Positions 272 to 2,938 of a stretch of DNA of 2,991 bases are shown piece after piece. The DNA is taken from assembly GCF_003334335.1 (NCBI RefSeq), contig NZ_QOWQ01000087.1; one strand, 5' to 3'. The DNA is from Escherichia coli. Its GTDB lineage: Bacteria; Pseudomonadota; Gammaproteobacteria; Enterobacterales; Enterobacteriaceae. The notes beneath the pieces are model-generated. The model had not been told where the DNA came from and did not search any database. It saw nothing but the letters and a program-made list of their open reading frames with translations. Numbering within the stretch: position 1 is the first letter of the stretch; each line of letters opens with the position of its first letter. The position numbers were made by a program, and so were the translations under genes.

Positions 272-697
272 TCAATGCACGACAACAGCATTACCAGGCT
301 GACCACCACTGTTAGTCAGGGTGCCCCAGGCGATCGCCGCTGCGACAAAATCATCCACATCTTTCACCAGCCGATCCCTCCGTTCGACGATCTCACGGTA
401 ATATTCAGAGCTGTGACTGCGCATACGGGCCACCAGCAGAGGCGGCATTGCCTTTTCGATCGCCGGTAACAGAGCCTGAATTTTTTCAACAGCATCAGGG
501 GTGTCTTTATCCAGCCAACGGAAAATTTTCTGGGTATTACGAGCCAGGGCTTCCGGATGGCTGTCGTCGTACAGTTCCGGGAACGTCATTCCCAGCTCGA
601 AATACGCTTTGGTAATTTTCGCAGCCGGTACTTTTTCGCCGTCCGGATGCGCCCAGACATTCATCGCCATGCGGATGTGTTCATGCTTGATTTTCAT
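272..697 (-). CDS. ydaT: YdaT-family protein (historically annotated as toxin YdaT; reported as a CII-like regulator in Rac-type prophages)
   Basis: 141-aa ORF. AGGAG lies 8 nt upstream of ATG at 697..695. N-terminus MKIKHEHI... and the length match YdaT as I recall it. Its start overlaps the 3' end of the upstream Cro-like gene by 17 nt, the typical ydaS-ydaT arrangement. Confidence 0.7.
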   Translation of the reverse strand: MKIKHEHIRMAMNVWAHPDGEKVPAAKITKAYFELGMTFPELYDDSHPEALARNTQKIFRWLDKDTPDAVEKIQALLPAIEKAMPPLLVARMRSHSSEYYREIVERRDRLVKDVDDFVAAAIAWGTLTNSGGQPGNAVVVH

Positions 698-962
698 GAA
701 TCAAGCTCCTAGAAAGTGGTTGTGTTAACGTTTTGGTATCTTCCAGCTCGGGCCAAATATTCATCCAATCAAAAGGCCTTAGTTGCTGACGTGTAACTTC
801 ACCATTACTGGCTCGCTCAATAAGGACACATAACGATGCCCCTAACACTTGACCTTTACTCAATGCTTTTCTTAGATAACCGATGCTGGTATCACACTCG
901 CATGCAAACATACGCTGTTCATCTGACGAAAGAGAATTGAGAAATATTCTTAATTCTTCCAT
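681..962 (-). CDS. Cro-like HTH regulator of the YdaS/COG4197 type, first gene of the rightward-equivalent early operon
   Basis: 93-aa ORF. AAGGAG (973..968, minus strand) lies 5 nt upstream of ATG at 962..960. The protein has a C-terminal motif ...QQLRPFDWMNIWPEL... that I associate with the YdaS/Cro-like family. It is divergent from the repressor gene across a 100-bp operator-bearing spacer. Confidence 0.75.
   Translation of the reverse strand: MEELRIFLNSLSSDEQRMFACECDTSIGYLRKALSKGQVLGASLCVLIERASNGEVTRQQLRPFDWMNIWPELEDTKTLTQPLSRSLIHENQA
686..705. promoter_or_regulatory. Perfect inverted repeat CTTGATT-N6-AATCAAG centred on the ydaT-like start codon; candidate protein-binding dyad
   Basis: Sequence cttgatt ttcatg aatcaag at 686-705 has 7-bp perfect arms and a 6-bp spacer. 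It overlaps the ydaT ATG (695-697, minus strand) and sits next to its RBS. I recall a TTGATT-N6-AATCAA site being reported for YdaT-type proteins, but this is from memory and unverified. Confidence 0.4.
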
Positions 963-1062
963 AGCTACTCCTTAGTAAACACAGCAAAGAATACCCGCAG
1001 GTAAACAAAAGTCAATACCCACAGGTTGTTTACCTTGCGGTAATCGCATCTATTATTTACCT
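963..1062. promoter_or_regulatory. Divergent promoter/operator region between the Cro-like and repressor genes, with three TACC-N4-GGTA-type operator sites
   Basis: Sites TACCCGCAGGTA (992-1003), TACCCACAGGTT (1016-1027) and TACCTTGCGGTA (1031-1042). Candidate minus-strand promoter for the Cro-like gene: -35 TTGACT (1015..1010), 16-bp spacer, -10 TATTCT (993..988). Candidate plus-strand promoter for the repressor: -35 around TTGTTTACC (1026-1034), -10 TATTAT (1051-1056) ending 6 nt before the ATG, with no SD, suggesting a leaderless transcript like lambda PRM. Promoter calls are by eye only. Confidence 0.5.
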
Positions 1063-1482
1063 ATGGACAAATATGAATTTAGACGACAGCAACTCATCAA
1101 AATTCGTGATGAGAAATGCGATGGTAAAGCGGTTAACGTGGCCAGAAAGATCGGGCGCGAGCCTTCTTATGTATCAAGAATGTTGTACCCAGAGGGGAAA
1201 AAGGGAAAAAAACGGATCGCTGATGATATGGTGGAGATTATCGAAGAGTCCTTTGGGTTACCCCGGGGATGGATGGATGGTATCGTTTCATCATCAACGA
1301 ACACAGCCTCCAGTTATGAAACAAGGGTTCTAACGCCACGACAACGTATTTTTTTAGATCTCTTAGACGAACTGCCAGAAAGTGAAGCGGATAAATTATT
1401 AAAAACTCTTGAAGAGAAAAAACAGTATTACAATATGATCTACGAAGAAATCCGTAAAAAGAAAGCACAAAACGCATCATAG
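1063..1482 (+). CDS. Prophage CI-type repressor (DicA/RacR-like); N-terminal HTH and C-terminal helical dimerisation-like region
   Basis: 139-aa ORF divergent from the Cro-like gene. The N-terminal half contains the phage-repressor motif ...GKKRIADDMVEIIEESFGLPRGWMDG.... The C-terminal ...LTPRQRIFLDLLDELPESEADKLL... resembles the C-terminus of E. coli DicA as I recall it. No SD precedes the ATG, consistent with a leaderless repressor mRNA. Confidence 0.8.
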   Translation: MDKYEFRRQQLIKIRDEKCDGKAVNVARKIGREPSYVSRMLYPEGKKGKKRIADDMVEIIEESFGLPRGWMDGIVSSSTNTASSYETRVLTPRQRIFLDLLDELPESEADKLLKTLEEKKQYYNMIYEEIRKKKAQNAS

Positions 1483-1524
1483 CTCACCAAACAACTAGTC
1501 ACCAGTTAAGACACCGCAAAAATT

Positions 1525-1561
1525 TACCCATAGGTATTTACTTTTTAAATACCTATGGGTA
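1525..1561. promoter_or_regulatory. Perfect 14-bp-arm palindrome carrying two operator-type sites; candidate operator of the downstream early-left promoter and/or bidirectional terminator after the repressor gene
   Basis: Arms 1526-1539 (acccataggtattt) and 1547-1560 (aaatacctatgggt) are exact reverse complements with a 7-nt loop (acttttt). Each arm contains a TACC-N4-GGTA site (1525-1536, 1550-1561) matching the motif found three times in the 963-1062 region. The stem is followed by a T-rich tract, atccttcttttc. Location 43 bp after the repressor stop and about 190 bp before the next ORF. Confidence 0.5.
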
Positions 1562-1746
1562 TCCTTCTTTTCATACCAACCCACCCCGCCCCACAGAATG
1601 CAGGGCAATACTTCGAGTTACCCGGCAGTGGTCAGGGGTTAAGTAGCCAGCCCGAGGCGTATGAACATGACGGCGGGAACACTTTGTATAACAGCGCAGC
1701 AGGTTTTTGTTCCGCTCCCCCGGCGTTAAGGGGAAATGAGGTCAAC

Positions 1747-1899
1747 ATGGATACTATCGATCTTGGCAACAGCGAATCTCTGGTATGCGGCGTGTTTCCC
1801 AACCAGGACGGCACGTTTACCGCGATGACGTATACCAAAAGTAAAACGTTTAAAACCGAAGCTGGCGCGCATCGCTGGTTAGCAAGAAACTCCGACTGA
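1747..1899 (+). CDS. Small 50-aa protein in the position of ydfA/ydaF in Qin/Rac
   Basis: GAGG (1738-1741) lies 5 nt upstream of ATG 1747. Product is MDTIDLGNSESLVCGVFPNQDGTFTAMTYTKSKTFKTEAGAHRWLARNSD. Size and position (first gene after the repressor, same strand, upstream of dicF) match ydfA/ydaF (about 51 aa); family assignment is from memory only. The 114-aa ORF in the track (1555..1899) is an RBS-less extension starting inside the palindrome. Confidence 0.5.
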   Translation: MDTIDLGNSESLVCGVFPNQDGTFTAMTYTKSKTFKTEAGAHRWLARNSD

Positions 1900-1910
1900 T
1901 GAGGTTGACG

Positions 1911-2312
1911 ATGGAATTTAAAGATTTACCAGTACCATTCCAGGAAATGGCATCTAATGTGGTTCGCTCTCAACTGGCGACTCTTGACCTGAGTACTGTA
2001 GAAAAGGAAACCATCGATACTATATCCGGTAACGTGCGTCGTGCCTTTATAGGTCTGTATGAAGAGAAGCGCCTATTCGGCGGACAGAATTCGACTGAAA
2101 ACAAGAATCAAGCAAATGATGAGAAGCTGAAACACATTATCGCCTTACTTTTGGAAGACGCAAAACGTCTACAGCAACTGGAACCAAATGCAGGCACAGA
2201 GGCCCGCATTTGGATTGCCATGAAATCACTCAAATGTGAAAGCAGTGATTATTTCAAAACAACAATTAAAACTACTCAACTTTCGGGAGAGCTACTGAAG
2301 AAATTGCCATAA
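1911..2312 (+). CDS. Hypothetical 133-aa early-operon protein; occupies the span that E. coli K-12 Qin annotates as ydfB plus ydfC
   Basis: GAGG (1901-1904) lies 6 nt upstream of ATG 1911. An alternative in-frame ATG at 1899 overlaps the upstream stop (TGATG) but has no SD. The ORF is uninterrupted to TAA at 2310-2312. No family recognised. Confidence 0.5.
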   Translation: MEFKDLPVPFQEMASNVVRSQLATLDLSTVEKETIDTISGNVRRAFIGLYEEKRLFGGQNSTENKNQANDEKLKHIIALLLEDAKRLQQLEPNAGTEARIWIAMKSLKCESSDYFKTTIKTTQLSGELLKKLP

Positions 2313-2551
2313 GAGCATGGTCTTTCTCTTGTTCTGCAAGATGAGCATTAATACCTGCTATGGTTTTTTCAAATTTATCTATCTGTTGAATAACAACTTC
2401 GCGGTATACGTTTGTATTTGTACCACCAAGCGCAGCCGTTAATGCAGAAAGCATATTTAGTATCATATCAGTGCGATATGAAAAGAATCCTGATAGCTTC
2501 ATCTTGTTTTTCAATAATAGATTGCAGGGCCTCAATTTGCTTTTTATCCAT
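2272..2551 (-). CDS. Antisense ORF with a strong RBS but an interrupted reading frame: either a 27-aa upstream ORF (2468..2551) coupled to a 64-aa ORF (2272..2466), or a frameshifted gene of about 90 aa
   Basis: Minus strand: GGAGG, 5 nt, ATG (2551..2549). Frame A gives MDKKQIEALQSIIEKQDEAIRILFISH then TGA (2470..2468). One nt later ATG (2466..2464) opens the +1 frame, MILNMLSALTAALGGTNTNVYREVVIQQIDKFEKTIAGINAHLAEQEKDHALMAISSVALPKVE, ending at 2272. The track's 94-aa ORF uses GTG at 2556, which abuts the SD with no spacer. The 3' end overlaps the convergent 1911..2312 ORF by 41 nt, which lowers confidence. Confidence 0.3.
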
Positions 2552-2556
2552 TTCAC

Positions 2557-2885
2557 CCTCCTGAGGGTTGGTAATTAAGGAGTTCTCCACGGGTCAGGTG
2601 GAGTGCGTGCGCCGGACACGGGTGAGCATCCGGCACTGACAGTTTACTGAAAAGGATATATCCCTGAAAAGTCAGGGCATAACACGAAAGCGCCCGGCGA
2701 AGTTAGTCTCTCTGTATAGGTCGTCATTAAATTTTCGTCGACCGCGCGCTTCCGGTTGTGGCACTCCGCGAAATGGCGCGGCGGTAAGTATGGCGGGGTT
2801 ATTCCTTCCCCGTTGAGGACACCGGGTTGTCAGGTTGACCATACGCTTAAGTGACAACCCCGCTGCAACGCCCTCTGTTATCAAT
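2557..2885 (+). other. GC-rich, highly structured non-coding stretch upstream of dicF; probable processed precursor region of the dicB-operon transcript
   Basis: No credible ORF on either strand. Sharp rise in GC content after 2557. Hairpins: gccgga/tccggc (2611-2616 with 2630-2635), ccctga-aaag-tcaggg (2662-2677), ccgcgc/gcgcgg (2742-2747 with 2776-2781), and ggttgtca/tgacaacc (2825-2832 with 2853-2860) with an alternative partner gcggggtt at 2793-2800. In K-12 DicF is excised from a long precursor by RNase E and RNase III. Confidence 0.4.
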
Positions 2886-2938
2886 TTTCTGGTGACGTTT
2901 GGCGGTATCAGTTTTACTCCGTGACTGCTCTGCCACCC
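2886..2938 (+). ncRNA. dicF: DicF small RNA homologue (prophage-encoded ftsZ-targeting sRNA), with its T-run immediately downstream
   Basis: Sequence tttctggtgacgtttggcggtatcagttttactccgtgactgctctgccaccc matches the 53-nt E. coli K-12 DicF as I remember it at 52 of 53 positions (K-12 ...ctgccgccc, here ...ctgccaccc), followed by ttttt. Genomic context fits the Qin order dicA - ydfABC - dicF - dicB: a repressor and small ORFs upstream on the same strand. Confidence 0.7.

Follow-up and report, generated by a model that had tools for sequence, protein, structure and literature searches.

A TACC-N4-GGTA dyad as the probable operator shared by the immunity promoters and the dicB-type operon of a Qin-like Escherichia coli prophage

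A 12-bp dyad, TACC-N4-GGTA, recurs in both intergenic regions that flank the repressor gene of an Escherichia coli prophage, and this raises the question of which protein reads it and which genes are controlled through it. The DNA analysed here, a stretch of 2,991 nt to which we refer as the window, is 100% identical to a prophage integrated beside yccA in E. coli JE86-ST05 and constitutes a Qin-like prophage, in which a Qin-type early-left operon lies behind a different immunity module. An earlier note on this DNA had proposed that a single repressor acts through the dyad on both the cro/repressor switch and the downstream dicF-containing operon, in analogy with DicA at its two operator regions.

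The genes follow the order replication gene, ydaT, cro, repressor, ydfA, a 133-aa ORF and DicF, with dicB, an exonuclease and an integrase beyond the window (Table 1). The Cro protein is 71% identical to that of phage mEp043 over 73 aa and shows distant matches to the solved Cro/YdaS structures 8c7k and 8co2. The YdaT operator OM is found where this site has been footprinted in CP-933P, beside a PRE-type promoter (PMC9986795). Two further features of the locus may be recorded here. Within the early-left operon, ahead of DicF, an antisense ORF on the minus strand (2272-2502; PHROG 18692, hypothetical in RefSeq) runs convergently into the 133-aa ORF at the latter's 3' end. At the other end of the window, six GTGAC(A) repeats phased at 10-11 bp (18-76; TRF: 41-75, period 10, 3.5 copies) are found within the 5' portion of the minus-strand gene for the replication initiator (DnaT-like/O-like) and may represent origin iterons.

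Table 1. Features of the immunity region and early-left operon, in coordinates of the window.
Feature	Position	Strand	Description
ydaT (CII analogue)	272..697	-	close match to PDB 8bt1 (crystallised CP-933P protein), E = 1e-82
cro (YdaS family, 93 aa)	681..962	-	PHROG 35
YdaT operator OM, TTGATTTTCATGAATCAA	687-704		exact TTGATT-N6-AATCAA; spans the end of cro and the start of ydaT
PR-like promoter (cro)	988..1015	-	-35 TTGACT 1015-1010, 16-bp spacer, -10 TATTCT 993-988
OR1, TACCCGCAGGTA	992..1003		exact; overlaps PR spacer and first two -10 bases
OR2, TACCCACAGGTT	1016..1027		one mismatch; weaker, degenerate right half
PRM-like promoter (repressor)	1029..1056	+	-35 TTTACC, 16-bp spacer, -10 TATTAT
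OR3, TACCTTGCGGTA	1031..1042		exact; overlaps PRM -35 and spacer
repressor (CI analogue, 139 aa)	1063..1482	+	
OL2, TACCCATAGGTA	1525..1536		exact; abuts PL -35 on its upstream side
OL2/OL1 hairpin, then TCCTTCTTTTC	1525..1572	+	perfect 16-bp stem, 5-nt loop; terminator-like in scan
PL-like promoter, early-left operon (dicBp equivalent)	1537..1565	+	-35 TTTACT 1537-1542, 17-bp spacer, -10 TATCCT 1560-1565
OL1, TACCTATGGGTA	1550..1561		exact; fills PL spacer and first two -10 bases
early-left (dicB-type) operon under PL	1747..2938	+	RefSeq annotation of the identical locus; PHROGs
ydfA	1747-1899	+	
133-aa ORF	1911-2312	+	
DicF sRNA	2887-2938	+	Rfam, 70 bits

In the whole window, exact copies of TACCNNNNGGTA start at 992, 1031, 1525 and 1550, and a single-mismatch copy occupies 1016-1027. 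These are the five positions given in the earlier note, and they are confined, as it had stated, to the two regulatory intergenic regions (963-1062 and 1483-1746). Dinucleotide-preserving shuffling of the window (200 replicates) yielded a mean of 0.02 exact copies and no replicate with four; the analytic expectation, 2991/65536 = 0.046, agrees with the previous rough estimate of about 0.05 per 3 kb. For matches with one mismatch or none the chance mean was 0.70, and the further one-mismatch match at 603-614, inside ydaT, is accordingly at chance level. Its interpretation as a distal operator, of which mEp043 has one at a similar offset, was rejected, the neighbouring genes being non-homologous and the count that of chance. 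The copies at 1525 and 1550 form the two arms of one palindrome and, given the palindromic nature of the motif, were treated as a single independent event; the resulting three independent exact matches and one near match are far beyond chance. The fuller consensus can be written as t-T-TACC-Y-R-Y-R-GGTA-A-a. Judged from the sequence, these dyads are almost certainly operators of a lambda-style prophage switch.

The 100-bp divergent region (963-1062) contains three of the sites together with two predicted promoters, the composition of a lambdoid divergent switch. The promoter scan of this region returned exactly these two promoters, PR and PRM, each matching the consensus at 9 of 12 positions, with predicted starts near 981 and at or near the A of the repressor ATG (1063), respectively. 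OR1 lies 71 bp from this ATG (61-73 bp before the start in relatives), and its variation within the lineage is limited to the central four bases. OR2, separated by 24 bp from OR1 and by 15 bp from OR3, is placed between the -35 elements of PR and PRM, its centre at about -41.5 from the predicted PRM start; each of the 10 diverse loci compared has at this position a site with the same degenerate right half, a feature to be expected if the site is filled cooperatively. OR3 lies 32 bp from the ATG (21-33 bp in relatives) and is weakened by the substitution G1039A in 18 of 80 close relatives. No Shine-Dalgarno sequence was detected before the repressor ATG (1051-1065), the -10 hexamer of PRM is 6 nt from the ATG, and relatives, distant ones included, also have a -10-like hexamer 6-7 nt ahead of their ATG. 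This makes a leaderless repressor mRNA probable, such as has been reported for lambda cI and PaaR2 (PMC8630535). One additional candidate, TACCTATGGACA at 1058-1069, has a good left half-site and two mismatches on the right, and overlaps the repressor ATG as well as the start predicted for its transcript. As it is conserved no further than the close lineage, it was rejected as a fourth OR site and is unlikely to be a genuine operator.

Downstream of the repressor gene, OL2 and OL1 are spaced by 25 bp and bracket the early-left promoter, so that the second operator cluster of a lambdoid switch is also present, in an arrangement that is kept in relatives. The PL-like promoter, with a predicted start near 1572, matches the consensus at 8 of 12 positions, below the threshold of the promoter scan, and was assigned by positional homology to stronger promoters in relatives, e.g. 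TAGACA-17-TATATT in mEp043. The segment 1543-1566 is 75% complementary to 987-1010, which indicates that PL and PR are built to one layout. The predicted transcript would begin with a leader of ~175 nt (1572-1746) up to ydfA, which is unrelated to the Qin leader until ~1700 and for which no Rfam family was matched.

The candidate reader of these sites is labelled 'hypothetical protein' in RefSeq. A Pfam search with the repressor gave no match and a PDB sequence search only insignificant matches to Z-alpha, and its fold was taken from a predicted model, in which it adopts a classical HTH of the lambda/434-type N-terminal class. At the family level it corresponds to PHROG 5736, 'transcriptional regulator' (E = 6e-70). 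Over residues 1-72 it shares 76% identity with the CI of the lambdoid phage mEp043, residues 32-46 and 48-56 being identical in both proteins with one change, K47S, between them. Across 14 representative relatives the domain shows 66-85% identity and the conserved REPSYVSRMLY...KKRIADDM region is present; the recognition region REPSYVSRMLY is nearly invariant across the repressor family. Three parts can be distinguished in the protein: an HTH domain of the mEp043-CI type (residues 1-74), a disordered linker (76-87) and a DicA-like helical tail (89-138). The tail (residues 89-134) is 33% identical to the DicA C-terminus (E = 2e-7; BLASTP, with only the tail aligned), and the NCBIfam DicA model NF007257 reaches 24.5 bits against a cut-off of 101, with only residues 86-136 matching, so that the whole protein falls outside that family. 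Neither Pfam nor the alignment revealed a C-terminal S24 (LexA-like) autocleavage domain, the feature that would mark an SOS-inducible repressor. In the alignment, relatives have PF00717 where this protein has its DicA-like tail, and in hundreds of database relatives the DNA-binding domain is fused to an S24/LexA-type peptidase domain. Because the tail replaces the peptidase domain, RecA should not cleave the repressor. The protein thus has the composition of a natural chimera between an HTH domain of the mEp043-CI type and a tail of the DicA type.

Of 5,426 complete E. coli genomes, 822 (~15%) carry the immunity module (960-1600). The repressor gene contains a homopolymer run (G4-A5-G3-A7, 1194-1211), and in database proteins P0010-P0019 a +1-frame ORF with its start at 1073 continues into the main frame close to the run, an indication that frameshifted repressor alleles exist; none was found among 80 viral-contig loci.

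The comparison across relatives was decisive for the operator reading. Diverse relatives were fetched singly through their S24-type or short repressors, while a scan of viral contigs gave only near-identical E. coli prophages. The motif occurs at equivalent positions in eleven diverse relatives, which range from Salmonella to Mannheimia and Xanthomonas phages. In mEp043 it is found 72, 47 and 32 bp before the cI start, the middle site having the same GGTT ending, with two more copies, 25 bp apart, before N. The E. coli phage CharmingMan shows the same pattern as mEp043, which is repeated in Salmonella, Pantoea, Edwardsiella, Yersinia, Serratia and Klebsiella prophages and in one metagenomic contig. 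Relatives with a homologous DNA-binding domain and Cro thus share the dyad and the OR offsets, and usually an OL pair spaced by 25-26 bp (9 of the 10 diverse loci compared, plus the Mannheimia phage). Among 49 sites from 10 loci, TACC is present in all 49, the two G positions are kept in 49 and 48, the T in 45 and the A in 39; Y-R-Y-R predominates at the four central positions, with a preference for T and A in the flanks. TACC-N4-GGTA is also kept where the domain has diverged further, namely in Mannheimia phage 587AP2 (domain 45% identical; locus L098, 2386-2438 and 4246-4283) and Xanthomonas phage Rb1 (50% identical; locus L099, 2378 and 3983). The central operator bases of the AT-rich Mannheimia phage are A/T and not YRYR.

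When 80 near-identical E. coli loci were compared, it was the four central bases that carried the substitutions, and hardly any copies occurred outside the two regions. Loci and controls together, 152 kb, contain 45 exact copies, 43 of them at OR or OL and 2 elsewhere, where ~2.3 would be expected by chance. The motif search across related prophages that had been suggested with the original proposal therefore recovers the same dyad at equivalent OR and OL positions in diverse relatives, and the outcome that was to refute it, a motif common at non-regulatory positions, is absent from these 152 kb. The sites, their positions relative to the predicted promoters and their conservation together with the protein domain are matters of observation. 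No TACC-N4-GGTA was found in a heteroimmune Qin-type prophage of the same genome or in K-12 Qin itself; both have the layout operator, -35, operator, -10, each with its own operators. The heteroimmune Qin-like prophage (L097 40700-43200; NZ_AP022815, ~2.04 Mb) combines a DicA-like repressor with the same ydfA-dicB operon, and its PL carries TTGAGTTTTCTCAA-type operators.

Taken together, the five dyads are very probably the operators of a lambdoid immunity switch, bound by dimers of the 139-aa repressor. Regarding binding, cooperativity, activation and the order of occupancy, we infer the following course. Repressor dimers would bind the dyads via an XRE/lambda-type HTH whose recognition region is REPSYVSRMLY. 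Occupation of OR1 and OR2 would block the leftward cro-ydaT promoter, while repressor bound at OR2, at about -41.5 of its own PRM, would probably stimulate this promoter. Lambda CI activates PRM from about the -41.5 position. OR3, on the -35 element of PRM, would shut the promoter at high levels of repressor or Cro. OL2 and OL1, which bracket the -35 element and cover the spacer and the -10, would keep the ydfA-DicF-dicB operon, with its toxic division inhibitors, silent. The homologous Cro is presumed to be the second ligand of the repressor's operators, occupying the same sites in the opposite order, and YdaT would act at OM as the CII analogue. Several features of the locus do not favour the operator switch: the weak consensus match of PL, the terminator-like appearance of the single palindrome into which OL2 and OL1 combine, and the spacing between OR2 and OR3, which places the two sites on opposite faces, unlike in lambda. 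The idea of one repressor acting at both the cro/repressor and the dicF-operon promoters is nonetheless supported, the sites overlapping -35 or -10 elements of three promoters and the dyad being kept in relatives.

The palindrome at OL might serve a second function in addition to repressor binding. We regard as possible, though tentative, that the OL2/OL1 pair constitutes at once an operator pair and an intrinsic terminator (a t_imm equivalent), stopping PRM transcripts before the dicB operon. The palindrome is perfect over 37 bp (16 + 5 + 16 nt), and its RNA hairpin, with a folding energy of -23.7 kcal/mol (z = -7) and UCCUUCUUUUC directly 3', has the stem and U-rich tail that the scan scored as terminator-like. 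It starts 43 nt past the repressor stop codon (1482), with no other terminator found between this codon and OL. As the repressor gene and the dicB operon lie on the same strand, insulation would make sense, and the separate GC-rich terminator that mEp043 carries before its OL leads one to expect some insulation here as well. Furthermore, the stem is preserved in the commonest variant, A1532G, by way of a G-U pair, and the compensating change T1554C is found in some loci. However, any two adjacent palindromic operator copies can pair, and the operator pairs of most relatives do fold (-12 to -25 kcal/mol) with no terminator role implied, so that hairpin potential alone proves little. In addition, the stem is AT-rich (5 GC pairs), the U tract is interrupted by C residues, and K-12 Qin has no hairpin between dicA and dicBp.

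A different objection concerns the identity of the reader, since the comparison cannot tell repressor from Cro, the two being inherited together. It is improbable that the sites have a reader other than the 139-aa protein, be it Cro alone, YdaT or a host factor, despite the fact that Cro co-occurs with them as faithfully as the repressor domain and that the repressor has no Pfam HTH match. YdaT has its own footprinted operator, which is present in the window; a host factor is made unlikely by the fact that the motif accompanies the phage module in three bacterial orders; and the model of the repressor is a classical HTH. Moreover, a Klebsiella remnant in which no cro was called upstream of the repressor keeps the sites both by the repressor gene and before the N gene.

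Even less probable, in our view, is that the palindrome at 1525-1561 is a terminator and nothing else, its likeness to OR being coincidental and the repressor having no control of the downstream operon. The terminator-like shape and the lack of independence between the two downstream copies would fit such a coincidence, but a hairpin arm needs no internal TACC-N4-GGTA dyad. A pair of sites spaced by 25-26 bp lies ahead of the early-left genes in six enterobacterial prophages as well as in mEp043, CharmingMan and the Mannheimia phage; their stems are imperfect, and the terminator of mEp043 is separate and upstream. The -35 and -10 elements also share the register of PR. Finally, an origin of the copies by chance or base-composition bias, for which only the chance-level match at 603 could be cited, is refuted by the comparative data, no shuffle having reached the observed count and the positions being conserved across distant taxa, and its probability is negligible.

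Under the operator-switch reading, a 'hypothetical protein' without a Pfam family gains a putative function, a target sequence and a regulon, and the probable silencer of the division inhibitors DicF and DicB in carrier strains can be named. An operator consensus is defined for a repressor family of Enterobacterales, Pasteurellales and Xanthomonadales, from which it can be predicted which phages and prophages should be homoimmune. The joining of the same DNA-binding domain to an SOS-sensing peptidase or to a DicA-type tail constitutes a natural exchange of modules among phage repressors. A broader picture can be advanced as a conjecture that is rather less likely to hold than to fail as a whole: one HTH module, reading TACC-YRYR-GGTA through REPSYVSRMLY, would be common to the SOS-cleavable CI of active phages such as mEp043 and to a non-cleavable repressor with a DicA tail, the resident prophage would thereby confer SOS-proof immunity against phages of mEp043 immunity or block their induction, and the OL pair would have been recruited as a terminator insulating the toxic dicB operon. 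New are the recognition sequence, which like the repressor family itself appears to be undescribed, the functional assignment of a widespread 'hypothetical protein', and the swap of domains between S24 and DicA-type tails; the design itself is textbook and conceptually adds nothing to the lambda, DicA and PaaR2 models. Our literature search, which did not extend to subscription journals, found no published description of a TACC-N4-GGTA operator or of the mEp043 operators, and no binding, footprint or reporter data for the repressor, Cro or their relatives.

As in lambda, repressor and cro are divergent, three dyad operators overlap PR and PRM, the predicted DNA-binding fold is an HTH, OR1 and OR2 are 24 bp apart with OR2 near -42 of PRM, the repressor mRNA is probably leaderless, and a second operator cluster is found at PL on the far side of the repressor gene. 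Unlike in lambda, the operator core is 12 bp instead of 17 bp, the 15 bp between OR2 and OR3 place neighbouring dimers on opposite faces, OL has two sites instead of three and lies ~0.55 kb from OR instead of 2.4 kb, the repressor lacks the S24 autocleavage domain, a YdaS-type protein serves as Cro and YdaT as the CII analogue.

With the Qin DicA/DicC system the locus shares its downstream operon (ydfA...DicF, dicB), the PL layout of dicBp (operator, -35, operator, -10), and a short repressor without a RecA cleavage site, the C-terminal tails being homologous; for DicA, repression of both promoters, dicBp included, has been established by experiment (PMC10448788). The DNA-binding domain and the operators are in contrast unrelated, as are Cro and DicC, and a direct search rejected the sites as DicA-type operators, the Qin regulatory regions having different repeats. 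The analogy with DicA originally drawn extends further, to the tail of the protein, residues 89-134 being homologous to the DicA C-terminus; the closest relative by sequence is mEp043 CI/Cro and not DicA/DicC.

The PaaR2/YdaS/YdaT system of CP-933P (E. coli O157:H7) has a nearly identical YdaT and OM operator, a Cro of the YdaS family and a non-S24, leaderless repressor, and PaaR2 and YdaS have been shown by EMSA, footprints and reporters to act at OR and at a PL-like promoter (PMC8630535). Its operators are GTTTAGTAA-type repeats, which do not recur here, a single one-mismatch GTTTAGTAA match being at chance level, and the sites were accordingly rejected as PaaR2-type operators; nor were paaA2-parE2 toxin-antitoxin ORFs found after the repressor. 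Salmonella phage SPC32H Rep (PDB 5d50) shows a weak sequence relationship to the repressor, and no antirepressor was identified in the prophage. The closest relative by sequence is the mEp043 CI/Cro module (PHROG 5736), which differs in the S24 (LexA-like) C-terminal domain of its CI, in its lambda-type CII, in the N gene that follows OL and in the separate terminator before OL, and which agrees with the present locus in operator consensus, number and spacing, in the offsets of the sites and in the pair at PL.
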